A stretch of DNA of 13,991 nt from an uncultured Deinococcales bacterium (GTDB lineage: Bacteria; Deinococcota; Deinococci; Deinococcales; JAAFIG01), in NCBI GenBank assembly GCA_964247135.1, contig CAXTTL010000127.1:1-13991 (forward strand), read 5' to 3'. A program made the position numbers and the translations under genes. Positions 3-13,885 of the stretch are shown here, piece by piece; within the stretch, counting starts at the first letter, position 1, and every line of letters begins with the position of its first letter. Under the pieces are notes generated by a model. The model saw nothing but the letters and a program-made list of their open reading frames with translations. It was not told where the DNA came from and made no database searches.

Positions 3-1712
3 TTGTTGCAAGCCAACGCGACAACGCCCAAGGTCAGCGAAATTGTTTTCGAGTTTCCCAAAAAAGTCGCGCCACCAATCCAAAAAAGAGTGCCCGTCAA
101 ACCTTCAGTAAAAACCCAAGTGGTGGTGAAGGCAAAACCTGTTCAGGCAAAAGTCAAAGCGCCTGAGACTCGAGCAGTCAAACCCGTTGCTCCTCAAGCT
201 GAGTCTAAAGTTGCAGTTTCCAGCCCGTTGCCAAAACCCGTGGTCAAAACGCTGCAAGCGCCATTGAAAATGCTGAAACCCAGCGCCTCGCAGGTGATCA
301 AGTTGCAGCAACGCTCGCCGTTGCTTGCACCAAGTGCGGCACAACAAGCCATTTTACCAAACTTTAACTCGAGTTCCGCCAAACCCAATTTGTTGCGTTC
401 CAACGTGATAAGCACGGGTACGTCAGAAAAAATCAGTGCGAACGCTGGCGGCTCGAGCACGGCGAACACTGCAAATCTTGCCCGTTCCCAAAATGGCGCG
501 AGTTCGGGGACGGAAAAACTGCAACTTGCCAGCGTGCGCTCCAGCGCGGCGCAACCAGGGGACTCGAGCAGTCCGTTCAAAGCTGGTGCCGCAGGGGCGA
601 GCCTCGCGCCAGAAACGAACGGTTTGGCGGGCGGTGGCAGGGTAAGCACCAGCCTCGAGACCAACGCGCCGAGTTCAGCCAACCCAAGCGCTTCACAGGC
701 TGCCACGGGTGGACCTTTGAGCGGCAAGCAACAAGCCAGCTCGAGTTTGGATTCTCGACTTTCGGGAACTCCAGTCAACACGACCTCTGGGGCAGAATCC
801 TCGCGCCCCAGTCAAACTGGAACCACACCCAGCTCAAGCGCAGGAGGCGGACTCAGCACCCCTTCTAGTCGCCCGAGCAGCCCTTCGGGCACAGACACCA
901 AACCAACAACTTCTGGAACCACAGGTTCGAGCATTGCGGGTGGTGGATTGGCAAATTCCAAACCTGGTACGCCAAGCTCGAGTGCGGGTGGGAATGGTTT
1001 GGCGGGTTTAGGTATTGGCAGCTTGAGCGGCAAAGACACGGGTTTGGCGGGTTCTGGAAGCAGTGGCTCGAGCGGCAAAGACTCAGGACCCGCAGGTTCA
1101 GGCTCGAGTGGTACGTCAGGTGGTCGTGATACTGCTCTTACAGGCTCAGGCACGTCAACCTCTTCAGCAGGTTCGGGCACACCGACCAAACCTTCAAGCG
1201 CACCTTCCCAAGGCTCGAGTGACAAACCCAGCACTGCACCTGCCTCAACACAAGGAAAAGAAACCTCACCCATAGGCTCGAGTTCCAGTCAGAGTACAGG
1301 CGCACAAAGCAGCAAACCCAGCTCCAGCGCCGCCACCGGCACAGAGCGCACGGCATTGGGCTGCGCGATTCTGGTGGACGCTCGAGGTTTAACCCCGCCG
1401 TTGACGCCCAGTGAAAGCCCGGCGATTGTGAATCCCAGCAGTCAAAAAATCTGGCCCGACCCGAATGCGATTCAGGGTGTGGATTCCAATTTGGTCGGTG
1501 AAACGGGGATTGCCTCGTTCGCCACCTCCCAAGATCAGGCGCTCGGTTTTCTGGCTCAAGGCGTTCAACCCCTGACCGTCAAAGCCATTCAAGCCGTGCC
1601 AGCCGACGGCGTTCAAACCTCAGTTTTCAGGGATTACGTGATGGTTTCCGCCGGCGACGCGGCAAAAATTACGGCGTTGGGTCGAAACTGTCAGGTTGTG
1701 TTTATCAAATAA
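3..1712 (+). CDS. Large low-complexity (Pro/Lys/Val then Ser/Gly/Thr-rich) probable surface or periplasmic protein with a C-terminal globular domain; probably 5'-partial
   Basis: ORF is open from the window edge to TAA at 1710-1712. A long disordered linker precedes a C-terminal ~115 aa domain (AILVDARGL..PSESPAIVN..GIASFA..PLTVKAI..VMVSAGDA..CQVVFI) that resembles, from memory, the IDARGL domain seen in LPP20-type lipoproteins. Confidence 0.75.
   Translation: MLQANATTPKVSEIVFEFPKKVAPPIQKRVPVKPSVKTQVVVKAKPVQAKVKAPETRAVKPVAPQAESKVAVSSPLPKPVVKTLQAPLKMLKPSASQVIKLQQRSPLLAPSAAQQAILPNFNSSSAKPNLLRSNVISTGTSEKISANAGGSSTANTANLARSQNGASSGTEKLQLASVRSSAAQPGDSSSPFKAGAAGASLAPETNGLAGGGRVSTSLETNAPSSANPSASQAATGGPLSGKQQASSSLDSRLSGTPVNTTSGAESSRPSQTGTTPSSSAGGGLSTPSSRPSSPSGTDTKPTTSGTTGSSIAGGGLANSKPGTPSSSAGGNGLAGLGIGSLSGKDTGLAGSGSSGSSGKDSGPAGSGSSGTSGGRDTALTGSGTSTSSAGSGTPTKPSSAPSQGSSDKPSTAPASTQGKETSPIGSSSSQSTGAQSSKPSSSAATGTERTALGCAILVDARGLTPPLTPSESPAIVNPSSQKIWPDPNAIQGVDSNLVGETGIASFATSQDQALGFLAQGVQPLTVKAIQAVPADGVQTSVFRDYVMVSAGDAAKITALGRNCQVVFIK
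1026..1160 (+). repeat. Three degenerate in-frame tandem repeats of about 45 nt (15 aa)
   Basis: SGKDTGLAGSGSSGS / SGKDSGPAGSGSSGT / SGGRDTALTGSGTST. AGCGGCAAAGAC recurs at 1026 and 1071. Confidence 0.7.
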
Positions 1713-1786
1713 ATGCGCCTTCACGAAATTCAAGAATTTAGCAACACGCAATCCAATACACTCGAGCCATAGTTTAAGGAGACAAA

Positions 1787-2497
1787 ATGCAACGATCAAC
1801 AATCATTTTCGGACCCTCTATATGCCTGATTCTCAGCCTCGCGGGAAGTGCCTTTGCCTGGTTGCCCAAACTCGATGAAACCGCCGCCAAAGCCATTGTG
1901 GATGGGGTTTACCGCCGAGGTCCAGACGTGCCAACCTCGAGCAGCCTGAGTTTGAACGTCAAGAACGGCGCATTTGAGGCGGGCAACATTGTCGAGGTCT
2001 ACGGCGGCGATGCCAAATGCCTGAGCGACTGGCAGACCAAACCAAGCAGCTACGCCACGCTCGGCAGCCGCCCCACCGCCATCGCCGTCGCCGGACAGAG
2101 TGATTTGATCAAAGCCGCCGCCCTGGAGGCTCGGGACAACTTTAAAACCCTGACCGCCGCCGGTGCGCTCGAGATTGCCCGCAGTCGATTGCCCGACAAT
2201 CACTTGCGGGTCTTCATGAAAATTGAGGGACTCGAGAAAGACACATTGCGCGACGCCTACCAGGTGGGTGTGCTCGATAACAACAACAAAATTGTTGCAC
2301 CTTACCAAATTAACTTCCTTGACGATTGGGCGGCAAGCACGGGCGCTCGAGCCACCTGGGGCGGAACGATGGTGTATTATTTTGATTTCTCCAAAAATCC
2401 TGTGGACTCGAGTGGAAGCTTAAAGTTTTTGCTGCGAACCGAAGCGGACAGCGATTGTGCGTACAAGATTAACATCAACTTGGCAACGTTTAAGTAA
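1787..2497 (+). CDS. Secreted hypothetical protein (Sec signal peptide)
   Basis: AAGGAG RBS at about 1776-1781. Hydrophobic N-terminus ends in an AFA|W cleavage motif. 236-aa ORF. Confidence 0.8.
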   Translation: MQRSTIIFGPSICLILSLAGSAFAWLPKLDETAAKAIVDGVYRRGPDVPTSSSLSLNVKNGAFEAGNIVEVYGGDAKCLSDWQTKPSSYATLGSRPTAIAVAGQSDLIKAAALEARDNFKTLTAAGALEIARSRLPDNHLRVFMKIEGLEKDTLRDAYQVGVLDNNNKIVAPYQINFLDDWAASTGARATWGGTMVYYFDFSKNPVDSSGSLKFLLRTEADSDCAYKININLATFK

Positions 2498-2515
2498 AGC
2501 CAAATCAATTCAGAC

Positions 2516-2553
2516 ACAAAAACGTTGGAGACGATTTCAAACCATCCCCAACG
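2516..2553 (-). terminator. Intrinsic terminator for the TA operon
   Basis: Minus-strand hairpin CGTTGGGGATGGTT..AATCGTCTCCAACG (with G-U pairs) followed by TTTTTGT. Confidence 0.75.
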
Positions 2554-2574
2554 AAATTTAAATCTCGAGCTTTA
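2519..2574. repeat. Direct repeat copy 1 of the rplI stop codon plus terminator (51/56 identical to 3317-3372)
   Basis: aaaacgttggagacgatttcaaaccatccccaacgaaatttaaatctcgagcttta versus aaaacgttggggacagtttaaaaccatccccaacgaaatttgaatctcgagcttta. Confidence 0.92.
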
Positions 2575-2580
2575 TCAATA

Positions 2581-2817
2581 TCAAAGTGCATCTTCTGCAT
2601 CTGGCTTCACATTCGGAACAGCTTGCAAAGCAGCCAAAAATTTTTCGCTAGAACCTCGTTTGGCACGTTCTTCAAGAATGGTTTGTGTCTCGAGCGCACT
2701 GAGTTTTTCGGCGACGGCTGTGGCAATTAGGGTGTTTAAACTGATGCCTTCGTTTTCAGAAAGTTTTTTGAGTTCGTTGTGAACGGTGGTTGGTAAGCGC
2801 ACGCTGAGGGTTGTCAT
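2581..2817 (-). CDS. Ribbon-helix-helix antitoxin (HicB/CopG-like)
   Basis: MTTLSVRLPTTVHNELKKLSENEGISLNTLIATAVAEKL is a typical RHH pattern. Its start overlaps the toxin stop (ATGA). Confidence 0.85.
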   Translation of the reverse strand: MTTLSVRLPTTVHNELKKLSENEGISLNTLIATAVAEKLSALETQTILEERAKRGSSEKFLAALQAVPNVKPDAEDAL

Positions 2818-3233
2818 TTTGCACTCCTTTGCATCTGTAAAAATTCTTGAGGTTGGATGGCTTTAATTCCGAATTTTTCTGAACCCACAAAATCTTTGAT
2901 GTTGTACGTTACGATGTGCTCGCATTGTGCGTGCCATGCCAACTCGAGCAGGTGGTCATCTTTAGCATCGCGTATCGCTGGTCGCCAGGTGTAATACAAC
3001 CGAGGACGGTAGGCGATGCTTGCCAAGTAATCGAGGATGTCTTCGATGGCTTGGTGCTCTAGTGGGATTTTCATTTCTGGGCGTTTGAGGACATCTTCGT
3101 ACTCGAGAATCAAAGCGGTTGAAAGTGCAAGGGTGAACTTTTGTTCGTATAGCGGCATTAAAATTTGATATGAAGCTCCTTGGTTTGAACGCAAGCCTGA
3201 AACAATGACGTTGGTATCAAGAACAACGGGCAT
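2814..3233 (-). CDS. PIN-domain (VapC-like) toxin
   Basis: VVLDTNVIVSGL N-terminal PIN motif, EYEDVL, RDAKDDHLLELA and IVTYNIKDF acidic motifs. Confidence 0.9.
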   Translation of the reverse strand: MPVVLDTNVIVSGLRSNQGASYQILMPLYEQKFTLALSTALILEYEDVLKRPEMKIPLEHQAIEDILDYLASIAYRPRLYYTWRPAIRDAKDDHLLELAWHAQCEHIVTYNIKDFVGSEKFGIKAIQPQEFLQMQRSAK

Positions 3234-3238
3234 AAATT

Positions 3239-3267
3239 ATGGTAGTACAGATGCAACCAAAATACAA
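3239..3267 (-). promoter_or_regulatory. Putative sigma70 promoter for a leaderless toxin mRNA
   Basis: Minus strand reads TTGTAT-N17-TACCAT-N5-ATG with no Shine-Dalgarno. Leaderless transcripts are common in Deinococcus. Confidence 0.55.
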
Positions 3268-3313
3268 GCTCAAGTTTGATAAAATCTTATCGCTTCAGCA
3301 AAAATACTCAAGC

Positions 3314-3351
3314 AACAAAACGTTGGGGACAGTTTAAAACCATCCCCAACG
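3314..3351 (-). terminator. Intrinsic terminator of the rpsF-ssb-rpsR-rplI operon
   Basis: Minus-strand hairpin CGTTGGGGATGGTT-TTA-AACTGTCCCCAACG followed by TTTTGTT, 18 nt after the rplI stop. Confidence 0.85.
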
Positions 3352-3372
3352 AAATTTGAATCTCGAGCTTTA
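3317..3372. repeat. Direct repeat copy 2 (native rplI stop codon plus terminator)
   Basis: 51/56 identical to 2519-2574. Includes CTCGAG at 3362 and the rplI TAA at 3370-3372. Confidence 0.92.
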
Positions 3373-3813
3373 AAGCGCGGTGATGTTGAGCTTCAAAGGA
3401 ATTGGCACTTCGGGATGCGGTTTGTAAACCACTTCGTACTCGCCCAAATCCTTGATGGCTTTGCCCATGTCAATCTTACGACGGTCAATGGCAAGACCCG
3501 TTTGTTGTTCCACAGCGTCAGCCACCATTTGATTGGTGATCGCGCCGTAAATTTTACCTTCGCCCGCTTTGGCTTTGAGTTCGACAACCAACTCGGCAAA
3601 TTGACCCGCAAGCTTTTCGGCTTCGGTCTTTTGGCTCTCGAGTTTTTTGACTTTGCTGCGAATTTGCGCCTCAAGGTTTTTGAGGTTCGCGGCGGTGGCG
3701 GTGGCTGCCATGCCACGCGGCATCAGGAAGTTACGGGCGTACCCAGCTTTGACTTCGACAATGTTACCCGTCGTGCCCAGTTTAGCGACTGGCTCGAGCA
3801 GAATGATTTTCAT
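3370..3813 (-). CDS. rplI: 50S ribosomal protein L9
   Basis: [36 protein letters not shown] and IKDLGEY motifs, in the canonical operon position. Confidence 0.99.
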
Positions 3814-4127
3814 CGGCGCACCAACTTCTCCATGAACGGCAACAAACCAATTTGGCGTGCGCGTTTGATGGTCAAAGCGAGACGGCGTTGATTCTTGGCG
3901 TTCACACCAGTGCGGCGGCGCGGCAAGATTTTACCGGTATCAGAAATGAAACGGCGCAACATTTTCGCGTCGTGGTAATCCGTGACCTCGAGTTCGCCCG
4001 TCTTGAACGGGTCTACTTTCGGCTTGCGTGGGCGTTTCGGACCTTTGCCGTTGCCACGTGGTTTTTTGTCACCATCGCGGTCACGGTCACGGCTGTTGCC
4101 CGTGGTTTTGCGTTCTTCTCGTGCCAT
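3810..4127 (-). CDS. rpsR: 30S ribosomal protein S18 (Cys-less form with a basic N-terminal extension)
   Basis: [44 protein letters not shown]. Confidence 0.99.
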
Positions 4128-4226
4128 AAGTTGTGTCTCCAGTGATTCAAAAATGGGGTGAAAATTTGTGTTCCGTCAAAAGTGCGCTTTTAAGCTCGGC
4201 TTATTGCTTGAAGCTTAGAGCTACTC

Positions 4227-5114
4227 TTAAAACGGTAAATCTTCTTCTGGCGGGAAATCTTGTAAGCCTGCGTCAATGTCCAATCCCGCACGGGACCCTG
4301 CGCTGGTGTTGCGCGGTGCTGCCGCGACACTCGAGCGCCCTGGAACGTCACCGAAGGCTTGACGGTTCGATCCAGAGGTGATCCCAGCGCTGCCAGTGCT
4401 GCCAGGACCGCGAGAAAGGGCTTCGACTCTACGTCCTTCAACCCGTGTCGAGTTGCGTTTATTGCCCTCTTTGTCCGTCCAGGACTCGTTGACGAGCCTG
4501 CCCATGACCATGATCGGATCGCCTTTTTTCAGCGTGCCTGCGGTTTCCGCAAGTTCGCGCCAAAGGTTCACTTCGATGTAATGGGTTTTTTCTTGCCAGT
4601 TTCCGGTCTTGTCTTTCCAAGACTCGTTCACGGCAACCGAGGCGGTGGTGACGGCATCACCGGCTGGGGTGTAACGTAATTCGGCGTCACGGGTGAGGTT
4701 GCCAATCAAGACCACTTCGTTTAACGCGTTCGTCAGCCTATAACCACCTTGCGAATCTCGAGTTGTCACTTCCATACGGTTTCCAGGAAGTGCTGCCTCG
4801 ACACGCAATGCTTTCACACTGACTTGCGAACGTTTTGCCCCTTCGGGCGTTTCCCAGGTGCGAAACTCGAGCGCCCCCTCAACCATCACAGGATCGCCTG
4901 CTTTGAGTTGATCGGCAACGCCTTCGGCTTGCTTGCCCAGCAAACTCGTGCGGTGATACCACGGCAAAACTCGAGGTTTCCCGTCGTTCCCAACGATGTT
5001 GTCATCGCCAGCCACGACCAGATCGAGTACCGCCATCCCGCTTGGGGTGTAACGAAGTTCTGGGTCACGCGCCAGCGCCCCCAGCAGGTAAACATGATTT
5101 AAGCCTCTCGCCAT
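4227..5114 (-). CDS. ssb: Single-stranded DNA-binding protein, Deinococcus/Thermus double-OB-fold type
   Basis: Two tandem OB folds (NHVYLLGALARDPELRYTPSG and NEVVLIGNLTRDAELRYTPAG), acidic EEDLPF tail, AAGGAG RBS. Confidence 0.98.
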   Translation of the reverse strand: MARGLNHVYLLGALARDPELRYTPSGMAVLDLVVAGDDNIVGNDGKPRVLPWYHRTSLLGKQAEGVADQLKAGDPVMVEGALEFRTWETPEGAKRSQVSVKALRVEAALPGNRMEVTTRDSQGGYRLTNALNEVVLIGNLTRDAELRYTPAGDAVTTASVAVNESWKDKTGNWQEKTHYIEVNLWRELAETAGTLKKGDPIMVMGRLVNESWTDKEGNKRNSTRVEGRRVEALSRGPGSTGSAGITSGSNRQAFGDVPGRSSVAAAPRNTSAGSRAGLDIDAGLQDFPPEEDLPF

Positions 5115-5218
5115 AACTCACTCCTTGCGCTCGAGAGCGCCCTTGAAAATTCATAGCTTTTCAAAACCAACAATACTTGATGCCCTGCGGATACTCTCGA
5201 GATACCACGAGAGAAGGC

Positions 5219-5530
5219 TTACTTCTCCTTCTTCGTTTTCCACTCGGGGCGTTGACGCACCACCAACAAACGCCGCACGTGATCGCGCAAGCGCAAGCTC
5301 GTTTGAATCGCGTTCGTTTGATCGGCTGCCATCTCGAGTTTGTAAATCAAGTAGTAGCCTTCACGGTCTTTCTTGATGTGGTACGCCATGCGACGGTTGC
5401 CCCACTCGTCGAGTGTCACAATGCTGCCGCCAGCGTTCTTGATTGCATTCTCGATGTATTCCTTTTCGACTGCCAGTTGCGCAGCGTCGAGGCTTGGGTT
5501 GAGAATAACGTTCAAATCGTAATTCACCAT
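5219..5530 (-). CDS. rpsF: 30S ribosomal protein S6
   Basis: YDLNVILNPSL..DEWGNRRMAYHIKKDREGYY, with an AAGGAGGTG RBS. Confidence 0.99.
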   Translation of the reverse strand: MVNYDLNVILNPSLDAAQLAVEKEYIENAIKNAGGSIVTLDEWGNRRMAYHIKKDREGYYLIYKLEMAADQTNAIQTSLRLRDHVRRLLVVRQRPEWKTKKEK

Positions 5531-5587
5531 AATTCACCTCCTTAAAGTCCAGCAAAAATCCGCCACGGTAAAGTGGCGCGAATTGAG

Positions 5588-5616
5588 ACTATATCAGGAT
5601 GCTGGGGGTTGGGCAA
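5588..5616 (-). promoter_or_regulatory. Promoter of the rpsF operon
   Basis: Minus strand reads TTGCCC-N17-TATAGT with an extended -10 TG, predicting a leader of about 50 nt. Confidence 0.65.
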
Positions 5617-5691
5617 GGGAAGGAGAACCCTCGAGAGGGGAAGAGCAAAGCCTGAATTTTGTGGGTTTTGTTGAAGTTTTCGTGTCGTGAC

Positions 5692-5757
5692 GGGCGAAGA
5701 CAAGCTTCGCCCCTACACCAAATTTGCGTCTGGTAGGGGTGGACCTTGTGTTCACCC
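5692..5757. repeat. Inverted doublet of GTAG-type REP palindromes (REPIN-like)
   Basis: Reverse complement of 5692-5716 is GTAGGGGCGAAGCTTGTCTTCGCCC. 5733-5757 is GTAGGGGTGGACCTTGTGTTCACCC. Identity is 20/25 with compensatory stem changes and a 16-bp spacer. Confidence 0.8.
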
Positions 5758-5872
5758 TTGCAATGGGTATCCGCTCAATCAAACTCGAGAAACGTTTTTG
5801 GGTTTTGGGGATGCTCGAGAATTGCGGGTTGAAAATGGGAACGAAAGCTCGAGATGCAGCGTATCGTTTGGA

Positions 5873-6391
5873 ATGATGGAAGAATTGCAAACAGTTGAAT
5901 TGCAGATTAACAAACGCAGATACATGTTGTTGGGACTATATCCATTGGTACTAGCAACAGGTTACGTTTTGATTCCAAACATTGTTCCGTATGCTTGGTT
6001 AAAGTGGAGCTTCGTTGTATTTTGCATCGGAATTGGATTGTGGTTTCTGAGCGATGTTTTTATAGGGAATCCTTATCTGAAAATCACTGTTCAGGGAATA
6101 GAAACTCGAAGATTTTTTCGCACACGTAAGATTCGGTGGTTAGACATCGCTAGGTTTTATGAACCTAATAGGAAACACGCTCTTGGATTTGTTTACGTTC
6201 AGGATCGAACACCTAAGCCCTCTGCATTCAATCGAAATTTCTTTGGCTATGATGATACCGTGGTAAATTCAAGCACTCTGAAATTTGATGAATTTCGTGA
6301 TTTGGTAATTTCTTACTGGACAAGTGCCAAACAAATCCAAGCGCTCGAGCTTTCCAAGCAAACTTTAAATCCGCGTCTGAAAGCTGATTGA
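5873..6391 (+). CDS. Membrane protein with two TM helices and a probable bacterial PH-like domain
   Basis: Two hydrophobic segments, then LKITVQGIETRRFFRTRKIRWLDI, typical of bPH-type domains. Start moved to ATG 5873 or 5876 because the upstream extension runs through the REP doublet. AT-rich. Confidence 0.65.
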   Translation: MMEELQTVELQINKRRYMLLGLYPLVLATGYVLIPNIVPYAWLKWSFVVFCIGIGLWFLSDVFIGNPYLKITVQGIETRRFFRTRKIRWLDIARFYEPNRKHALGFVYVQDRTPKPSAFNRNFFGYDDTVVNSSTLKFDEFRDLVISYWTSAKQIQALELSKQTLNPRLKAD

Positions 6392-6399
6392 GACATGAA

Positions 6400-6771
6400 A
6401 TGAAAAAATTGCTACCCTTATTTCTTTGGATTTTCTTTACATCCTGTCCTCGAGAAAGGGAAGTAACCGTAGTCTTTAATTACAATGCCAACACTCATGA
6501 GAATTTTACAACTTTTTTGATCAAATCATGTCCTGGTATTGATAATAAATGTCCAGAATCTATTGGTGTTCGTAAAGAAATTTCGGACGGGAGTAATCAA
6601 ACTCTTAAAGTAAAAATTCGCAGTCGTAAAGTTTATTTTTATATGAAAGGCGTTGTTATTGGTGGAAAAGCAAAATTGTTTCTTGACGGGAAACAATGTG
6701 GAGAAACTGACATCAAAGCATATGGTGTTGCTGCTGAATTTTTAGTTGAATGCAAACCAAGTCCATTATAA
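6400..6771 (+). CDS. Putative lipoprotein
   Basis: MKKLLPLFLWIFFTS-C lipobox-like signal followed by a beta-rich domain with four further Cys. AT-rich codons. Confidence 0.7.
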   Translation: MKKLLPLFLWIFFTSCPREREVTVVFNYNANTHENFTTFLIKSCPGIDNKCPESIGVRKEISDGSNQTLKVKIRSRKVYFYMKGVVIGGKAKLFLDGKQCGETDIKAYGVAAEFLVECKPSPL

Positions 6772-6804
6772 ATTCATTTGAATTGATTCTGAGTTCATCA
6801 AAAC

Positions 6805-7080
6805 TCAATCCAACAACAATCTTGCAGTCGGTTCATCCACAATCAATTCGTTCAACAACGCTTCAGCCAACGCCGCCTTCAACGCTTTAGCTTTGCTTTT
6901 CCCTGGCACCACGCAAACACCGTGTTTGGCTTGTCGGATCACGTTTAAATCGGGTCCTGATGCACGGTCATTCAACGGAGTGTTGTCAAAACTGCCATCT
7001 TTGCGAAAGAAAATGGTGGCAATGTCACCTTCGACGTGCTCTGCGGTCAACTCTTGGTCATCGCGTTTCTCGAGCTGCGA
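6805..7080 (-). pseudogene. C-terminal fragment of a SorC/DeoR-family (sugar-binding domain) transcriptional regulator
   Basis: GDIATIFFRKDGS..SGPDLNVIRQ..VCVVPGKSKAKALKAAL..LNELIVDEPTARLLL matches the SorC-type C-terminus. The HTH and about two thirds of the protein are missing, and the IclR gene occupies the upstream DNA. Confidence 0.7.
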
Positions 7081-7093
7081 ATATTTCAGACCT

Positions 7094-7786
7094 TCAAGTA
7101 CCCAGCCCAAGCAGCACTTTTCTCAACCCCTGCCGCTCGAGCAAGTACCGCTCGAGCGGCAATTGCACGCCCAACGTCGCCTCGAGTTTCCCTTCAAAAA
7201 ACACGGGAATTGCCAGCGCACATTGTCCTGGCAGCCATTCCTCTATCGAGTATGCAATCTGTTGTTTTCGCACCCGCTCGAGTTCGGTCTGCCATTCGTC
7301 GGGCGTGGTGATGGTGTTGGGCGTGAAGGCTTCAAATGGTGGTGCGTTTAATTCTTGGAAGGCGTAAAGCACTTTTCCGGCGGCTGTCGCGTTGGCTGGC
7401 AGGTAGACATCGGTTTGAATATGCTCAAACTCGAGTGCAGGGTCGGCATTGAAACGGTCGATGCAGACCACACGGTTTTCCTCGAGCACGCAGAGCACAC
7501 CCAAGGTTTTGGTTTGCGTGGCAAGGTGTTGCATTTTGACTCGAGCTTGTCCGTACCAACCGAGGCTGTGATGCAGTTGTTCGGAGAACTCGAGCAAGCG
7601 CCAACTGAGGCGGTAACTGCCGTTTTCGGTGCGGCGCAACCATTGCAGGTTTGCCAGGGTTTGCAAGTACAAATGGGTGCTCGAGCGTGGCATGTTCAGT
7701 TCGCTGGCAAGCTCTCTTACGCCCCAAACAGGTTTTTCGCGGGTGAAATACCGCAAGATCAAACTGGCTTTCTCGAGGGACTGCAT
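7094..7786 (-). CDS. IclR-family transcriptional regulator, probable hut regulator
   Basis: [71 protein letters not shown]. Divergent from hutU. A CATACT -10-like hexamer 6 nt before ATG 7786 suggests a leaderless start. Confidence 0.92.
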
Positions 7787-7807
7787 GGCTTCAGTATGCC
7801 CGAATCT

Positions 7808-7824
7808 GTCCAACAATGTTGGAC
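7808..7824. promoter_or_regulatory. Perfect palindrome, candidate IclR operator
   Basis: GTCCAACA-A-TGTTGGAC lies in the 83-bp divergent intergenic region. Confidence 0.7.
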
Positions 7825-7869
7825 GTTGACCTTGTGAACTTTTACAAAACAGCGCAAACTCGAGGCATC

Positions 7870-9522
7870 ATGCAAACCTCAATTCGTGCCGCTCGAGGGA
7901 ATGTTCGTACCGCCAAAGGTTGGATTCAGGAAGCCGCCAAACGGATGCTGATGAACAACCTGGATAACGAGGTTGCCGAAAAACCTGAAGAACTGATTGT
8001 TTACGGAGGGCGCGGCAAGGCGGCGCGAAACTGGGAGGCGTACCACAAGATTGTGCAAACGCTGGATAGGCTCGAGAATGACCAAACGCTGTTGGTGCAA
8101 TCTGGAAAACCCGTGGCGGTGCTCGAGACGCAACCACTCGCGCCAAGGGTCTTGATTGCCAATTCCAACCTCGTGCCGAACTGGGCAAACTGGGACGAAT
8201 TTGATCGGCTCGACAAGGCTGGTCTGATGATGTACGGGCAGATGACGGCGGGAAGTTGGATTTACATTGGCACGCAAGGCATTTTGCAAGGGACTTACGA
8301 GACGTTTGCGGCGGCTGGCAAAAAGCATTTTGGCGGCACGCTGGCAGGCACAATCACGGTCACGGCAGGACTCGGCGGCATGGGCGGCGCTCAACCCCTG
8401 GCGGTCAAACTGGCGGGCGGCGTGGCAATCTGCATTGAGGTTGATCCACTGCGCATTCAACGACGGCTCGAGACGAATTATTTGGATGAAGTTGCCAGCA
8501 ATCTCGAGGAGGCGATTCGATTGGCGAAGGCTGCCAAACAAGCCAAACGCGCCGTTTCAATTGGGCTTCTTGGCAATGCTGCCGAAGTCCTGTCGCAAAT
8601 GCTCGAGTTGGGTTTTATCCCCGAACTCATCACCGATCAAACCTCGAGCCATGACCCAATGTGGGGTTATTTGCCGCCAAGCCGCGCTGACGAGGACATA
8701 GATAAACTGCGAATCAGTCAACCCGAAGAGTATTTGGTTCGCGCTCGAGCCGCGATGGTGAGGCACGTTGAAAGCATCATCGAAATGCAAGCTCGAGGGG
8801 CAATTGCCTTTGATTACGGCAACAACCTTCGCGCCCAAGCCAAACTTGGCGGACTCGAGAATGCGTTCTCCTACCCTGGATTTGTGCCCGCTTTCATCCG
8901 CGATTCGTTCTGTGAGGGACGCGGACCGTTTCGTTGGGTGGCACTCTCAGGCGAAGCCTCCGACATCGCCGCCACCGACAAAGCGTTGCTCGAGTTATTC
9001 CCGCACGATGCACGCTTGCAAAACTGGTTGGGTTACGCCGCCGACCAGATTGCCTTCCAAGGTTTACCCGCCCGAATCTGCTGGTTGGGCTACTTGGAGC
9101 GCGATAAAGCAGGCTTACTGTTGAACCAAATGGTACGCGACGGACGACTTAAAGCCCCCATCGTCATCGGGCGCGATCACCTCGACGCGGGATCGGTGGC
9201 AAGCCCGTACCGCGAAACCGAAGCCATGCTTGACGGTTCGGACGCGGTTTCAGACTGGGCGCTGCTCAATTTCGCCACAGGAATCTCGAGCGGCGCGGCA
9301 TGGATGAGCTTTCATCACGGCGGCGGCGTTGGCATGGGATACAGCCAGCACTCGGGCTTGGTTGCTGTGGCAGACGGCAGCGAAGAAGCCGACACGCGCT
9401 TGCGGTTGTGCCTCAAAAACGACCCTGCAATGGGTGTGATTCGTCACGCCGACGCGGGATACGACCTCGCCATTCGCGCTGCTCATGAGCGCGGTGTGGA
9501 CATGCCGAGCCTCGAGAAATGA
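7870..9522 (+). CDS. hutU: Urocanate hydratase
   Basis: [64 protein letters not shown]. The likely start is ATG 7870. Confidence 0.99.
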
Positions 9523-9540
9523 AACGCATCGCCCCTGAAG

Positions 9541-9664
9541 CCCTCATCCGGCTCGCAAGCTCGCCACCTTCTCCCGCAGGGAGAAGGAAAAAGTTCTCGA
9601 GCCACACGTGTCAAAGAATAAAGCTCCCTTCTCCTTATGTTGGGAGAAGGGTCGGGGATGAGGG
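9541..9664. repeat. Palindromic REP/MITE-like element (CCCTCATCC..CCTTCTCCC-N-GGGAGAAGG family), inverted pair
   Basis: Terminal inverted repeat CCCTCATCC (9541-9549) / GGATGAGGG (9656-9664). Internal hairpins at 9567-9587 and 9626-9651. Confidence 0.8.
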
Positions 9665-9673
9665 TAGAATTTA

Positions 9674-10579
9674 ATGCTCCCCTTCTCTGGTATTTCAACT
9701 TTCGCTCGAGCATCCATTGCCAGTCTCGAGCAAGCTTGGCGTGCCGATGTGGGCGTGCTTGGTGTGCCGTTTGACATCGCACTGGGTTTTCGTCCTGGTG
9801 CACGTTTTGCTCCTCGAGCGATTCGTGAGGCGAGTTTGCGGTATGCCTTGCCGATAGAGGGTTTTTATGACCTCAAATCAGACCGTCAGCGCCTTGTAAA
9901 CCTCGAGTTGCGCGATGTCGGCGATGTGGATTTGCCGAGCCTTGAGCCTGAATTGGCTAGAAATAGGATTGAAGCTGCGGCTCGAGCGTTGCGTGAAAAA
10001 GTGAAATTGCCTGTTTTTTTGGGTGGGGATCACAGCGTCAGTTATCCAATTTTAAGAGCGTTTGATGACGTGCCAGATTTGCATGTGGTGCAGATTGATG
10101 CGCATTTGGATTTTACGGATGTTCGCAATGACACCAGGTTTTCCAACTCGAGTCCGTTCAGGCGTGCGTGTGAGGATTTACCGAACTTGAAGCACATCAT
10201 CACGATTGGTTTGCGTGGCGTTCGGGCGGATCGTGAGGCGGTGAAAGCCGCAAAATCTCGAGGTCACACTTTAATTCCAATGTGGGAATTGAATGATCTC
10301 GAGCAAGTGATCTCGAAGCTTCCAAGCGGCAAAAACGTGTACTTGTCGTTTGACGTGGACGCCCTCGATCCAGGTTTTTTTCCTGCGACCTCGAGTCCAG
10401 AACCCGACGGTTTAAGCTTTGCAACGGCGGTACAATTGATTCAAGCCACCGCAACCCGAAATCAAATCGTTGGTTTTGATCTGGTGGAGATGACCCCAAA
10501 CCTCGACGCGAGCGGCAACAGTGCGCTTTTTGCGGCAAGATTGATTGTGGAAACGCTTTTGGCGGTGTTCGATGCTTGA
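9674..10579 (+). CDS. Ureohydrolase (arginase/agmatinase family), probable formimidoylglutamase by context
   Basis: GGDHSVS, DAHLD and SFDVDALDP metal-binding motifs. Sits between hutU and hutI. Confidence 0.9.
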   Translation: MLPFSGISTFARASIASLEQAWRADVGVLGVPFDIALGFRPGARFAPRAIREASLRYALPIEGFYDLKSDRQRLVNLELRDVGDVDLPSLEPELARNRIEAAARALREKVKLPVFLGGDHSVSYPILRAFDDVPDLHVVQIDAHLDFTDVRNDTRFSNSSPFRRACEDLPNLKHIITIGLRGVRADREAVKAAKSRGHTLIPMWELNDLEQVISKLPSGKNVYLSFDVDALDPGFFPATSSPEPDGLSFATAVQLIQATATRNQIVGFDLVEMTPNLDASGNSALFAARLIVETLLAVFDA

Positions 10580-11825
10580 TTTGCTGCTAACAGGTATTTC
10601 CCAACTCGTGACGGCGCAAGGTGCAGGCTTGCATCGGGGCAAAACCCACGGCGAATTGTTCAAACTCGAGAACGCTGCACTTGGATTTCAGAACGGTTTA
10701 ATCGCCTGGGTCGGACGCGAATCGGACTGGGCAGGGGAGACTCGAGAAACCAGAAATCTCGAGGGTCGCGCCGTCATTCCTGGTTTGATTGACCCTCATA
10801 CCCACGCGGTTTGGGCTGGAACGCGCTTGAATGATTTTGAGGCTCGAGCTTCGGGCGTTGGTTACGAAAACATTCTGGCGGCGGGTGGTGGCATTCGCAG
10901 CACCATGAAATTCACAGGAGAAGCCAGCCTCGAGACACTGGTCAACCTCGCGCTGCCAAGGCTCGAGGCGTTGATTCGTTCGGGTGCGACCACAATCGAA
11001 GTCAAATCTGGTTACGGTTTCACACTCGAGGCGGAACTGAAAATGTTGATGGCGGTGCGCGAATTGCAAACTCGGGTTTCGGCGCATCTCGAGCCAACGC
11101 TGTTGATTCACGTTCCGCCCAAAGATAACCTCGAGCGTGAGGCGTATCTGGACATGGTGATGAATGAACTCATCCCGCAAGTTGCCGCGCAAAAATTGGC
11201 GACAGCCGTCGATGTTTTTGTCGAACGCGAAGCCTTCAACATTCCCGAAACCGAATTGATTTTGCAGGCGGCTCGAGCGAATCATCTCGCCATCAAACTT
11301 CACGTCGATCAATTTCACGCCATCGGAGGACTCGAGTTGGGCATTCAGTACAACGCGCTCAGTGTCGATCATCTCGAGGCATCGGGCGAAAACCAAATCA
11401 AGGCACTTTCCTCGAGCGACACCGTCGGCGTGATTCTGCCAGGCGTGACCCTGCACCTCGGTTTGCCCGCCGCCCCAGGGCGAAAATTGATTGACGCGGG
11501 GGCTGCCGTGGCAATTGGCACAGATTTAAACCCAGGCTCGAGTCCGGTGTATTCAACCCAACTCGCGTTGGCGCTGGCGGTTCGATTGAACGGTTTAACC
11601 CCAAGCGAGGCATTGATTGCCAGCACCGTCAACGCCGCCGCCGCACTAGGTTTGTATGACCGTGGACGGCTCGAGGTGGGTTGTCGCGCCGATGTGCTGG
11701 TGCTCGAGGCTGCGGATTGGCTCGAGATTGCGTATACGTTGGGGCAAAATCCTGTAAAACAAGTTTTTATTGGTGGGCATGAACGGCAGGGCGCAGTAAA
11801 CAGCGCCCCTACACAAAATTTGTAA
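10572..11825 (+). CDS. hutI: Imidazolonepropionase
   Basis: PGLIDPHTH, EVKSGYG, KLHVDQF, DHLE, GTDLNPGSS. ATG 10572 overlaps the end of the upstream gene. Confidence 0.97.
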   Translation: MLDLLLTGISQLVTAQGAGLHRGKTHGELFKLENAALGFQNGLIAWVGRESDWAGETRETRNLEGRAVIPGLIDPHTHAVWAGTRLNDFEARASGVGYENILAAGGGIRSTMKFTGEASLETLVNLALPRLEALIRSGATTIEVKSGYGFTLEAELKMLMAVRELQTRVSAHLEPTLLIHVPPKDNLEREAYLDMVMNELIPQVAAQKLATAVDVFVEREAFNIPETELILQAARANHLAIKLHVDQFHAIGGLELGIQYNALSVDHLEASGENQIKALSSSDTVGVILPGVTLHLGLPAAPGRKLIDAGAAVAIGTDLNPGSSPVYSTQLALALAVRLNGLTPSEALIASTVNAAAALGLYDRGRLEVGCRADVLVLEAADWLEIAYTLGQNPVKQVFIGGHERQGAVNSAPTQNL

Positions 11826-11856
11826 TGAAATGTAGGGACGCTGCTTGCTGCGCCCT
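11788..11856. repeat. Inverted doublet of GTAG-type REP palindromes (REPIN-like) straddling the hutI stop
   Basis: Reverse complement of 11788-11813 is TGTAGGGGCGCTGTTTACTGCGCCCT. 11831-11856 is TGTAGGGACGCTGCTTGCTGCGCCCT. Identity is 23/26 with a 17-bp spacer. Confidence 0.85.
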
Positions 11857-11884
11857 TTCTGGTACACCTGAAAGGCACAATTCC

Positions 11885-13411
11885 ATGAATCCAATTTTGA
11901 TCGGTCAACCATTAACGGCGCACGACGTGGTGCGTGTCGCTCGAGAGTTTCAACCTGTGGCAATCGCGCCCGAAGCCAAAGCTGAGGTTCTGGCGTCTCG
12001 AGCTTACGTCGAAAAACTGGTGCTCGAGAATAAGACGGTTTACGGTATTACGACTGGTTTTGGGAAATTCTCGAACGTGCGCATTGCCCCCGAGGACACG
12101 CGTTTGTTGCAACGCAATCTGATTCTGTCCCATGCGATGGGCGTTGGCGAACCACTGGCGCAAGATGTCACCCGAGCCATGCTGCTGCTTCGGGCGCAAA
12201 GCTTGTCATTTGGCGTGTCGGGCATTCGTCTCGAGGTGATCGAATTGATCCTCGAGTGCTTGAATCGCGGCGTGCATCCGATCATTCCGTCCCAAGGCAG
12301 CGTTGGCGCGTCTGGCGATCTTGCGCCGCTCGCCCACATGAGTTTGATGTTGATCGGTGAGGGGAATGCTTGGTTTGGTGGTCAGGTCATGCCCGCGCAC
12401 CGTGCGCTCGAGAAAGCAGGATTAAAACCCATCACGCTCGAGGCAAAAGAGGGTCTGGCATTAATCAACGGCACGCAAGCCATGACCGCCATCGGGGCGC
12501 TGACCTTGCACGATGCGCTCGAGTTGGCAACCGTTGCGGACATCACGGGCGCAATGAGTCTCGAGGCGCTCAAAGGCACACTGTCAGCATTTGATGCTCG
12601 AGTGTCACGGGTTCGTCCGCATCCTGGCATGATCGAAGTTGCCGAGAACGTGCGAAAACTCGGTGCGAACTCTCCGATTCACCGCTCGCACGAGGACTGC
12701 GAAAAAGTGCAGGACGCCTACAGTTTGCGTTGCATCTCGCAAGTTCACGGGGCAAGCCGCGATGCGCTGCGTCACGCGCTCGAGGTGGTGACGCGAGAGG
12801 TAAATGCTGTGACAGATAATCCCTTGATTTTTCACAACGATGACACCGTGATTTCAGGCGGAAATTTTCATGGGCAACCCGTGGCTTTGGTCATGGATTA
12901 TGCCAAAATTGCGATTGCCGAACTCGCCAATATTTCCGAGCGCCGCATTGAGCACATGCTCGACCCCGCGCTCTCGGGAATGCCAGGCTTTCTTGCCATG
13001 CAGGGCGGTTTGAACAGCGGTTTGATGATCTCGCAGTACACCGCCGCCAGTTTGGTCAGCGAAAATAAAGTCTTGGCGCACCCCGCCAGCGTGGACAGCA
13101 TTCCGACCAGCGCCAACCAAGAAGACCACGTTTCGATGGGCACGACCAGCGCCAGACAATGTGCCATGATCCTCGAGAATGCGCGTTGGGTGTTTGCCAT
13201 CGAACTCGTCAACGCCACGCAAGCGCTCGGCTTTCACGCGCCGCTCGAGCCTGGAGATGGGGTCAAAGCCGCCAGGGATGCCGTGCGCAGCGTTGTGCCA
13301 CCCCTCGAGCGTGACCGCATCATGACGGGTGATCTCGAGGCGGCGAGGGGTTTGATTGTGTCTGGAAGGTTGCGGGCGGCGGTGGAAGGAGTGATTGGGG
13401 TGTTGCATTAG
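11885..13411 (+). CDS. hutH: Histidine ammonia-lyase
   Basis: VYGITTGFG, GSVGASGDLAPLAH (MIO-forming ASG), QDAYSLRC, GGNFHG, NQEDHVSMG. Start is ATG 11885 after GAAAGG. Confidence 0.98.
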   Translation: MNPILIGQPLTAHDVVRVAREFQPVAIAPEAKAEVLASRAYVEKLVLENKTVYGITTGFGKFSNVRIAPEDTRLLQRNLILSHAMGVGEPLAQDVTRAMLLLRAQSLSFGVSGIRLEVIELILECLNRGVHPIIPSQGSVGASGDLAPLAHMSLMLIGEGNAWFGGQVMPAHRALEKAGLKPITLEAKEGLALINGTQAMTAIGALTLHDALELATVADITGAMSLEALKGTLSAFDARVSRVRPHPGMIEVAENVRKLGANSPIHRSHEDCEKVQDAYSLRCISQVHGASRDALRHALEVVTREVNAVTDNPLIFHNDDTVISGGNFHGQPVALVMDYAKIAIAELANISERRIEHMLDPALSGMPGFLAMQGGLNSGLMISQYTAASLVSENKVLAHPASVDSIPTSANQEDHVSMGTTSARQCAMILENARWVFAIELVNATQALGFHAPLEPGDGVKAARDAVRSVVPPLERDRIMTGDLEAARGLIVSGRLRAAVEGVIGVLH

Positions 13412-13564
13412 AGGGAAATGGCGTATGTACGGATGAAGCTGAAAATGAAGCGTCGTGCTAAAGTTATAGTGATAATGTACAATTAGTTTAATAAAATAAT
13501 GACTTCGGTAAACACATCAATTCAGAATTCATTCAAAAGAGATTGAGTAGTCGGAGGTTATAAA

Positions 13565-13885
13565 ATGTTAAAACCTTGTATCATGATTGAGATTAAAAAC
13601 CGCCCTCAAACTCTTGAAACTTTAATACTCGAGAACGAGAGTGAGTATCCTTCAAAAATATTAGAATATGTTAATAAAAAATATCAGAATGCTTATAAAA
13701 TTGTACATTCAATCGAAGAATATCCTATTGATTCCGACCCAAATGCTCCTGAGCATTTAAAAAATGAAAGTTATAATATATGTAAATGGAAGAAAGGATT
13801 TGCAGTAACTAAAAGTGGTATTACAGGAGCAGATACTGATGTTTATGTAGTAGTTAGATTTTTTCCTTCACCGGAAAACAAATAA
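13565..13885 (+). CDS. AT-rich hypothetical protein
   Basis: GGAGG RBS at 13553-13557. 106-aa ORF in AT-rich DNA. No family recognised. Confidence 0.6.
   Translation: MLKPCIMIEIKNRPQTLETLILENESEYPSKILEYVNKKYQNAYKIVHSIEEYPIDSDPNAPEHLKNESYNICKWKKGFAVTKSGITGADTDVYVVVRFFPSPENK

Follow-up and report, generated by a model that had tools for sequence, protein, structure and literature searches.

The HIP literature cited here treats highly iterated palindromes (HIPs) as a feature of cyanobacteria, and what they do has been disputed for three decades. The closest of them to the element described here, HIP1 (GCGATCGC), is a short, GC-rich palindrome that is hyper-abundant throughout a lineage, occurs in all reading frames and in non-coding DNA, belongs to no longer repeat, and is not explained by codon usage (PMC5861425, PMC4390886; these two, like PMC13756078, PMC4752239 and PMC8616854 below, are cited for what their excerpts state). 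The same holds for the hexamer CTCGAG in the stretch of DNA analysed here (the window: 13,991 nt, from an uncultured Deinococcales bacterium), for which an earlier note made from the letters alone had proposed HIP1-like behaviour: it occurs all over the genome, between genes as well as in every reading frame, and more often than codon and dicodon usage explains. It is practically certain that CTCGAG is a HIP-type element, a strict 6-bp palindrome without a longer repeat, present chromosome-wide at about 25 times chance in an uncultured Deinococcales family; that a force at the level of the DNA, equivalent to a fixation bias of about 27-fold (ln about 3.3 per site) over one-letter neighbours, builds it by point substitution rather than insertion; that this force overrides synonymous choice and often amino-acid identity, and has so far left recent low-GC islands untouched; and that a weaker form exists in sampled genomes of three other Deinococcota families.

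CTCGAG departs from HIP1 in several respects. HIP1 is an octamer of Cyanobacteria, CTCGAG a hexamer of another phylum; CTCGAG reaches 6,660 copies per Mb, HIP1 300-2,700 (PMC4390886). The observed/expected ratio of copies is lower for CTCGAG (25, against 55-228), because a 6-mer has the higher expectation. Unlike HIP1, CTCGAG distorts the proteome clearly (Leu-Glu pairs at 2.4 times expectation), and whereas HIP1 has the methyltransferases DmtA and DmtC, none matching CTCGAG was found in the family. As for the alternate HIPs (GGCGCC, GCsGC, rCCGGy), each fills the HIP role with another palindrome in a sub-lineage, at comparable densities of 500-2,500 per Mb, and has a methyltransferase matching its specificity in its genome (PMC4390886); these occur in single cyanobacteria, whereas CTCGAG is shared by sampled genomes of several families, lacks such an enzyme as far as found, and meets the opposite trend, avoidance, in a sister genus. 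In Nocardia, the same hexamer is likewise used positively and not as a restriction target, but there it is clustered between dnaA and a polymerase gene and tracks an orphan methyltransferase (PMC4752239, Blow et al. 2016), whereas here it is spread genome-wide and no such enzyme was found; m5C methylation of CTCGAG is described for a Halorubrum strain (PMC8112702). Full-text literature searches found no description of CTCGAG as an iterated palindrome in Deinococcota, and the excerpted part of Elhai's HIP survey contains neither CTCGAG nor Deinococcus (PMC4390886). New here is a HIP-type element in a second phylum that is denser than HIP1, shapes the proteome, crosses family boundaries and has no detectable cognate methylase.

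Two further systems offer partial likenesses. The DNA uptake sequences (DUS) of Neisseria and uptake signal sequences (USS) of Pasteurellaceae are also over-represented short motifs, distributed genome-wide over coding and non-coding DNA, and are thought to spread via uptake-driven molecular drive; reportedly, by an account attributed to Findlay and Redfield in 2009, such sequences are scarce in recently acquired DNA and enrich particular peptides. They are 9-12 nt long, asymmetric, and occur about once per kb, whereas CTCGAG is a 6-bp palindrome occurring 6.7 times per kb; DUS often form inverted pairs in terminators, whereas CTCGAG lies in no extended palindromes. In the Dcm/Vsr system of E. 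coli (CCWGG), a repair bias makes a methylation site more frequent at the expense of its deamination neighbour, but that effect is small and leaves CTWGG depleted, whereas CTCGAG is enriched 25-fold and has no depleted neighbour, and no Vsr was found in any of five family genomes.

Abundance, maintenance and spacing of CTCGAG

Exact search of the window finds 107 copies of CTCGAG, agreeing with the approximate manual count of the earlier note; at 52.0% GC the zero-order expectation is 3.7, so that the enrichment is about 29-fold, within the 25-30-fold first estimated, and in 200 dinucleotide-preserving shuffles (mean 2.89, maximum 9) 107 copies are never reached. Mechanically called open reading frames (ORFs), of which some are uncertain in their reality or true start, contain 100 of the copies, on both strands and in all three frames (44/21/18 in plus-strand genes, 12/3/2 in minus-strand genes), and seven lie outside them. 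This divides the eleven sites first listed as intergenic: six are indeed outside called ORFs, while the other five (5196, 5784, 5814, 5848, 7859) lie inside ORFs of uncertain reality or start. The three sites first given as examples of the three frames (9725, 9705, 10147) all read correctly against the ORF starting at 9674. The span of the copies, those outside ORFs, the frame examples, and two further placements within genes are:

169..13633, unstranded: span of all 107 copies, one per 126 bp on average (exact search)
1761..1766, unstranded: CTCGAG outside called ORFs (ORF calls)
2564..2569, unstranded: CTCGAG outside called ORFs (ORF calls)
2689..2694, unstranded: CTCGAG outside called ORFs, absent from the first list (ORF calls)
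3362..3367, unstranded: CTCGAG outside called ORFs (ORF calls)
5130..5135, unstranded: CTCGAG outside called ORFs, just past the 5' end of the minus-strand single-stranded DNA-binding protein (SSB) gene (ORF calls)
5630..5635, unstranded: CTCGAG outside called ORFs (ORF calls)
9596..9601, unstranded: CTCGAG outside called ORFs, within a dispersed repeat at 9519-9670 (ORF calls)
9725..9730, plus strand: CTC-GAG, Leu-Glu, in the arginase-family gene (ORF start 9674; translation)
9705..9710, plus strand: xCT-CGA-Gxx, Ala-Arg, in the arginase-family gene (translation)
10147..10152, plus strand: xxC-TCG-AGx, Asn-Ser-Ser, in the arginase-family gene (translation)
4757..4762, minus strand: CTCGAG in the two-OB-fold SSB gene, one of four there (4330, 4757, 4866, 4970; exact search)
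7136..7186, unstranded: three-copy cluster (7136, 7151, 7181) in the gene of an IclR-type regulator (exact search)

The window is contig C127 of a genome (G000) of 5.09 Mb in 386 contigs (median 9.3 kb) with 52.7% GC. This genome holds 33,925 CTCGAG, or 6.66 per kb, against 1,369 expected at zero order (24.8 times); CTCGAG is by far its commonest hexamer, the next ones being overlaps of CTCGAG itself, and also its top palindromic hexamer, the runner-up palindrome reaching only 3.7 times expectation. The motif is thus not limited to one contig: all 386 carry it, none below 2.6 per kb, as do 19 of 19 family genomes. It is also not an artefact of one assembly, since motif-bearing related sequence occurs in independently assembled contigs of four public runs from four studies, which match the window as contigs only and with shares of 0.12 or less, no RNA run being listed; among the 40 best-supported differences listed for these contigs, one falls inside CTCGAG, where about two are expected.

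The element ends at its sixth base pair. Its flanks are near background, the strongest preferences being G at -1 (39%) and C at +1 (38%), and flank complementarity is 0.21-0.31 at offsets 1-10, so that there is neither an extended palindrome nor a longer repeat. TCGA outside CTCGAG numbers 20,685, against 19,754 expected for all TCGA, and an effect at the level of TCGA is ruled out, other contexts being at about chance. Hairpins and terminators are ruled out by the absence of extended palindromes around the sites, and a dispersed short repeat of the repetitive extragenic palindrome or miniature inverted-repeat transposable element kind (REP/MITE) by the lack of anything conserved beyond 6 bp and by the substitution-born sites of hutU described below.

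Within genes (a greedy longest-ORF set of 4,694 ORFs covering 87% of the genome), the density is 6.5 per kb, and in intergenic DNA 7.6 per kb; the copies divide into 17,510 / 4,627 / 6,679 by frame and 5,093 intergenic. The simplest account of such numbers would be ordinary: a preference for certain codons or dipeptides, a dispersed mobile repeat, or an artefact of assembly or cloning. CTC and GAG are indeed common codons (24.5% of Leu and 46% of Glu codons), CTC-GAG is the commonest frame genome-wide, with 61% of coding copies, and codon usage does explain the count in a Thermus-like sample (40 copies, against about 48 in shuffles). Against this stands the result of synonymous codon shuffling within genes, which yields 4,063-4,135 copies where 28,770 are observed and leaves a 7-fold excess, of about 5.6 in the CTC-GAG frame and 11-13-fold in the other two; whole-codon permutation yields 1,685-1,745. 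Intergenic copies exceed the 151 (zero-order) or 135 (first-order Markov) expected by 34-38-fold, and the interior of long intergenic regions still carries 6.4 per kb. Codon and dicodon bias is therefore insufficient, as first argued, the excess extending to every frame and to intergenic DNA. At the protein level, 76.8% of Leu-Glu pairs are spelled CTCGAG, against 11% expected from codon usage, and Leu-Glu is the most over-represented dipeptide (22,754 against 9,471 expected, 2.4 times); Glu-Leu is at expectation, and Ser-Ser 1.6 times over-represented. With near-random flanks, no extended palindrome, and presence in 19 genomes, in three differently named public records of metagenome-assembled genomes (MAGs) and in independent contigs of four runs, the ordinary causes are excluded by the shuffle, intergenic, flank and independent-assembly tests, and next to no weight is left for them. 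The finding withstands all three refuting conditions that the earlier note had set.

Further features of composition were seen in this genome. In 170 of 3,695 genes, a CTCGAG starts exactly 2 nt past the stop codon, about 4 times as often as at the local baseline; these gene-end copies share no further sequence. Apart from the motif, words that contain TA are rare, CTAG standing at 0.07 and TATA at 0.16 of expectation, and runs of A/T, like CAAA/TTTG, are enriched 3-4 times.

The sites are actively preserved. In alignments of the window with five same-genus genomes (nucleotide identity 86-88%), 78-86% of CTCGAG sites are intact, against 44-51% of all other hexamers; by class, retention is 223/252, 76/99 and 71/94 in the three frames and 18/18 in intergenic DNA, against 44-49% for other hexamers by class (intergenic control 43.7%). 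At synonymous third positions, Leu CTC retains its base in 229/240 cases before GAG and in 149/219 otherwise, and Glu GAG in 235/240 after CTC and in 144/214 otherwise. The five comparisons share ancestry and cover the 14-kb locus only, so that their P values are overstated, but the effect is large, and the retention, synonymous-site and intergenic tests agree. HIP1 sites, too, are conserved between genomes beyond control motifs (PMC5861425).

The motif is 27 times as frequent as the average of its one-letter neighbours (ln 3.3), so that a modest per-site fixation bias suffices; weak as this is, it overrides codon choice and alters thousands of amino-acid pairs. None of the neighbours is depleted, including the deamination products CTTGAG (1,442) and CTCAAG (1,436). 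A neutral, context-specific mutational bias that creates CTCGAG without any preference at fixation would find some support in the neighbours related by transition (TTCGAG, CCCGAG, CTTGAG), which exceed those related by transversion, as expected of products of motif decay. But such a bias would leave existing sites unprotected, whereas their loss is in fact strongly suppressed, synonymous and intergenic positions included, and no single neighbour is depleted as a source; it is thus a very improbable explanation. Retention and enrichment together imply that some sequence-specific process gives CTCGAG alleles an advantage at fixation everywhere in resident DNA, and the genome-wide process creating or keeping CTCGAG that had been postulated is in this sense required.

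How the sites arise can be seen in a codon alignment of hutU, which contains two informative copies:

8122..8127, plus strand: CTCGAG in hutU, alignment column 306 (codon alignment)
8854..8859, plus strand: CTCGAG in hutU, alignment column 1038 (codon alignment)

In both, the family sites match other codons of the outgroups without gaps. At 8122, Leu-Glu is found in seven of eight family genomes, and the seven outgroups have Leu-Arg, Leu-Lys, Phe-Arg or Phe-Lys, so that the site was made through amino-acid replacement; at 8854, CTCGAG is present in eight of eight, and the outgroups have Leu-Asn, Val-Glu, Phe-Lys, Phe-Glu or Phe-Ala. The sites were thus born by substitution, sometimes by a charge-changing replacement, and footprints of transposon insertion are ruled out by the same gap-free alignment.

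The copies are spaced more evenly than at random over short distances. In the window's genome, the gaps between them have a mean of 148 bp and a median of 108 bp; those below 15 bp occur at 0.25-0.4 of expectation (the class to which the short gaps of the three-copy cluster at 7136-7186 belong), those of 60-150 bp at 1.25-1.3 times and those of 300-600 bp at 0.73-0.86. Counted in 250-bp windows, the copies are under-dispersed (variance/mean 0.81); their spacing is more regular than Poisson below 500 bp, and heterogeneity dominates from 1 kb upward. Such spacing would suit an array of binding sites for an abundant chromosome-organising or nucleoid protein, with selection keeping a site every 100-150 bp or so, as would the excess of 60-150 bp gaps, the conservation of sites in coding and non-coding DNA alike, and the fact that only 29 of 4,900 1-kb windows lack CTCGAG; the periodicity of HIP1 has been interpreted in this way (PMC5861425). 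No candidate protein was found, though, up to 400 bp nothing periodic appears except the 3-nt coding signal, and the evenness could reflect saturation of the tolerable positions, so that an array of this kind is rather unlikely to be the explanation.

Where CTCGAG is missing, the DNA mostly looks foreign. Eight of the eleven longest motif-free stretches have 27-40% GC, against the genome mean of 52.7%. Three of the eleven are:

Contig C13, 11892-14536: CTCGAG-free stretch (G000)
Contig C70, 14167-16418: CTCGAG-free stretch (G000)
Contig C4, 51524-53437: CTCGAG-free stretch (G000)

Seven of ten ORFs tested in or beside motif-free stretches match a Pfam family, their products including a reverse transcriptase fused to a trypsin-like peptidase, AAA_16 NTPases and a Wzy-type ligase, which we read as proteins of the kinds often seen in defence or surface islands. 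In a closed relative (G011), an island at 34-42% GC that carries a C5 methylase is likewise nearly without CTCGAG. Since low-GC, foreign-looking islands lack it, the motif marks long-resident DNA. A large-terminase search for prophages in five genomes gave one sub-threshold match, in G005, and no others.

Distribution across Deinococcota and the search for a reader

All 19 genomes searched of the uncultured Deinococcales family (that of the window and 18 others, in five genera) carry 4.3-6.8 CTCGAG per kb, and three public records named 'MAG: Deinococcales bacterium' are enriched 25-29 times at the hut locus. In a survey of 201 genomes of the phylum, genera g13, g14 and g15 have 1.4-3.5 per kb, genus g35 has 3.6, and families f2 and f4 reach 2.6 and 2.9. 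Samples of 140 kb each from G165 (f2), G196 (f3, g35) and G025 (f4) show this to be a moderate form of the same trait: in all three, CTCGAG is the top palindromic hexamer, stands at 1.7-14 times synonymous shuffles in each frame, and is enriched 6.8-9.7 times in intergenic DNA, with Leu-Glu, but not Glu-Leu, raised 1.2-2.2 times. In the Thermus-like genus g9, the density is 0.6-1.6 per kb, similar to that of the reversed control word, and no excess over codon usage is seen in the sample mentioned above (40 kb). The motif is strongly avoided in the Deinococcus-like genus g7, whose 83 genomes have 26-1,010 copies each, with one copy in a 40-kb sample and 0-1 copies per 17-kb locus in named Deinococcus (loci L069-L080). 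The trait is graded across the order, with the window's family as its extreme; to confine it to 'this lineage', as first done, was too narrow, given the weaker form in sampled genomes of three other families and the avoidance in Deinococcus-like ones. The gradient from extreme through moderate to absent (Thermus-like) and reversed (Deinococcus-like) suits phylogenetic profiling of the responsible gene.

Viral sequences from IMG/VR offer a separate observation: among at least 80 viral loci (L274-L353, for example L316, L294 and L285), some high-GC contigs have 3-7 CTCGAG per kb and show the excess in every frame and between genes. The sample is biased, having been picked by a pattern of three clustered sites; the hosts are unknown, and among the matches listed none resembles the window's family.

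A known reader of CTCGAG is the restriction enzyme XhoI. Its endonuclease family, PF04555, was found in none of 19 family genomes and only in G021 (f4) among 31 genomes; it was not found in the three Deinococcus-like g7 genomes searched. CTCGAG does not behave as an XhoI-type restriction target in the family, where no PF04555 was found and the site is enriched 25-fold rather than avoided. The methyltransferase linked to XhoI in G021, used as a probe, has no close homologue in the family (best match 47% over about 70 residues), its close homologues being only in G027 and G022.

A rival explanation is methylation-coupled repair with an orphan methyltransferase, as in Elhai's HIP model: an enzyme specific for CTCGAG or TCGA would mark the sites, and methyl-directed or mismatch repair would either convert near-cognates or use the dense sites for strand discrimination. 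In its favour, every cyanobacterial HIP, the alternates included, has a matching methyltransferase (PMC4390886), and the strict palindrome suits a Type II-like dimeric or symmetric reader. According to a preprint, in the part cited here, one hot-spring group of hosts and viruses shares methylation of CTCGAG and TCGA; the phylum of this group is not given there. A candidate comes from G025, a closed genome with the moderate form, whose four main methylase families contain type I HsdM only: an Eco57I-family search yields an orthologue of M.TaqI (G025:C1:33946-35286; L252: 811-2154, minus strand; E 1.3e-126 to PDB 2ibs), orphan-looking amid housekeeping genes, flanked by an aminotransferase gene and a LiaF-like gene and with no recognisable endonuclease beside it, which may be an orphan TCGA methylase. 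But none of 19 family genomes has a close homologue of M.TaqI; such homologues were found only in G025 and in two genomes of Thermus-like type, the latter without enrichment.

Broader searches give the same picture. The C5, N6_N4, N6 and D12 methylase families are patchy over the 31 genomes, and none is common to all family members: G008 has no C5 methylase, yet carries 4.3 CTCGAG per kb, and the single-contig genome G011 has no N6_N4 methylase, yet is CTCGAG-rich. Five methylase matches of G011 were looked at. They read as a type I HsdM with its HsdS, the C5 enzyme of the low-GC island, a GGCC-type relative of M.CbeI, and the partner of a SacI-like enzyme, the last by similarity to the copy in G000; a 1,111-aa protein and two more N6_Mtase matches lie outside this reading. 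A Vsr homologue was found in none of five family genomes tested, and the C-to-T neighbours CTTGAG and CTCAAG are, as said, not depleted. The cognate methyltransferase and the Vsr-like gene with which enrichment had been proposed to correlate thus both failed to appear, the former in XhoI-type, M.XhoI-like and M.TaqI-like searches of all 19 family genomes. These genomes are 57-94% complete, so that a gene may be missed, and the specificity of the remaining N6 methylases is not readable from sequence. As far as homology goes, no gene among those searched tracks CTCGAG, and the window contains no responsible gene, as already stated in the earlier note. In sum, methylation-coupled repair appears rather unlikely here, though less so than a nucleoid array, and ranks next after the self-DNA tag described below.

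The D12 methylases (two read, the copies of G000 and G011) were rejected as readers of CTCGAG, as they fit the two most avoided sites instead; similar D12 matches occur in many family genomes. In G000, on contig C320 (L134: 1411-2244 and 320-1414, minus strand), a D12 methylase gene overlaps that of a SacI-like endonuclease (Pfam RE_SacI, 29.7 bits). GAGCTC, which is the motif read backwards, has 0 copies in the 5.09 Mb of this genome and 0-25 in most family genomes, and the tandem CTCGAGCTCGAG never occurs in it; judged by similarity, the putative pair of D12 methylase and SacI-like endonuclease fits this absence. A link between GAGCTC avoidance and CTCGAG is ruled out by G008, which keeps 568 GAGCTC and yet has 4.3 CTCGAG per kb. 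GGCC is down to 380 copies in G000, against 24,453 expected, and G011 has an orphan-looking methylase between housekeeping genes (G011:C1:4320418-4321128; L160: 4395-5243) that matches M.CbeI (PDB 7m6b, E 1.7e-91); CbeI is presumably a GGCC enzyme. M.CbeI itself is described as an alpha-class N4-cytosine methylase (PMC8616854).

A possible self-DNA tag

Being a strict palindrome, CTCGAG suggests a reader that is symmetric and probably dimeric. Such a factor, binding CTCGAG, would mark DNA that bears it as 'self' during natural uptake and/or homologous recombination; DNA with more sites would be preferentially taken up or recombined, and the motif would then spread by molecular drive, as proposed for DUS and USS and lately for HIP1. 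In the window's family, the reader would apparently neither be nor need a recognisable CTCGAG methyltransferase. This reading is put first for three reasons: the foreign islands lack the motif, the effect on the proteome and the even spacing resemble those of uptake sequences, and recent work on HIP1 leads in the same direction. A 2024 preprint on HIP1 (10.1101/2024.09.10.611283) is said to point toward a role in uptake or recombination, and HIP1 is now argued to be a DNA uptake sequence that raises transformation (PMC13756078). For the explanation as a whole, a HIP-type element together with the mechanism of a self-DNA tag, the probability is estimated at about 0.4; that CTCGAG is read by a dimeric DNA-binding factor as a mark of self is, as a claim of its own, conceivable but tentative.

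Several considerations weigh against it. Nothing links CTCGAG directly to uptake or recombination, and we know of no demonstration of sequence-specific uptake in any member of the Deinococcota. Known uptake sequences are non-palindromic 9-12-mers at about one per kb, and a 6-mer at 6.7 per kb lies outside this range. The competence genes ComEC (PF03772) and DprA (PF02481) are present in five of five family genomes, but also in 10 and 11, respectively, of 14 control genomes, and so discriminate little. Thermus is highly transformable, yet the Thermus-like genus g9 is not enriched, so that competence alone does not make the motif. The effect of HIP1 on transformation is methylation-dependent (PMC13756078), whereas a CTCGAG or TCGA methyltransferase is not assignable in the family genomes. 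The five genomes compared within the genus do not give independent tests, and genes were called mechanically, as longest ORFs. Finally, selection for a chromosomal function and biased conversion leave identical signatures in sequence; drive and direct selection cannot be separated on this basis, and none of the four mechanisms named in the earlier note (methylation-directed repair, a chromosome-organising protein, an uptake signal, a recombination or repair signal) can be proved by it.

A bolder form of the self-DNA tag is more doubtful still. In it, CTCGAG would be an ancient tag in sampled genomes of four Deinococcota families, read by a factor other than a conventional methyltransferase/restriction pair, with tagged DNA favoured in uptake, recombination or the discrimination of self from non-self; it would be the densest sequence tag known from any bacterium, would have re-coded the proteome of one family (about 13,000 extra Leu-Glu pairs), and would have turned to avoidance in the Deinococcus-like genus. 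If CTCGAG is such a tag, the 30-year question of HIP function becomes testable outside cyanobacteria, and the genomes with the milder form may have cultured relatives. Even as a second case of a HIP, in another phylum, of another sequence and apparently without an anchoring methyltransferase, it tests the generality of HIP models. In practical terms, the density of CTCGAG offers a sharp marker with which to bin these genomes and to detect recently acquired DNA in them, and XhoI-based cloning is unsuitable for their DNA.

Other features of the window

The minus strand at 4227-5114 carries the two-OB-fold SSB gene; we take this architecture to be of the Deinococcus-Thermus type, into which the SSB of the window would fit. 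The plus strand at 7816-13411 carries a histidine-utilisation cluster (hutU, the arginase-family gene, hutI and hutH), from which the IclR-type regulator gene at 7094-7816 is divergent. The dispersed repeat noted above is about 130-150 bp long, contains two short hairpin modules, and is present in the window at 9519-9670 and 5633-5767. An Rfam search of the window, the repeat included, gave no match. The repeat yields 73 blastn high-scoring pairs in the window's own genome and dozens of matches at 75-94% identity in each of five same-genus genomes, and depth spikes at it are seen in the public contigs.

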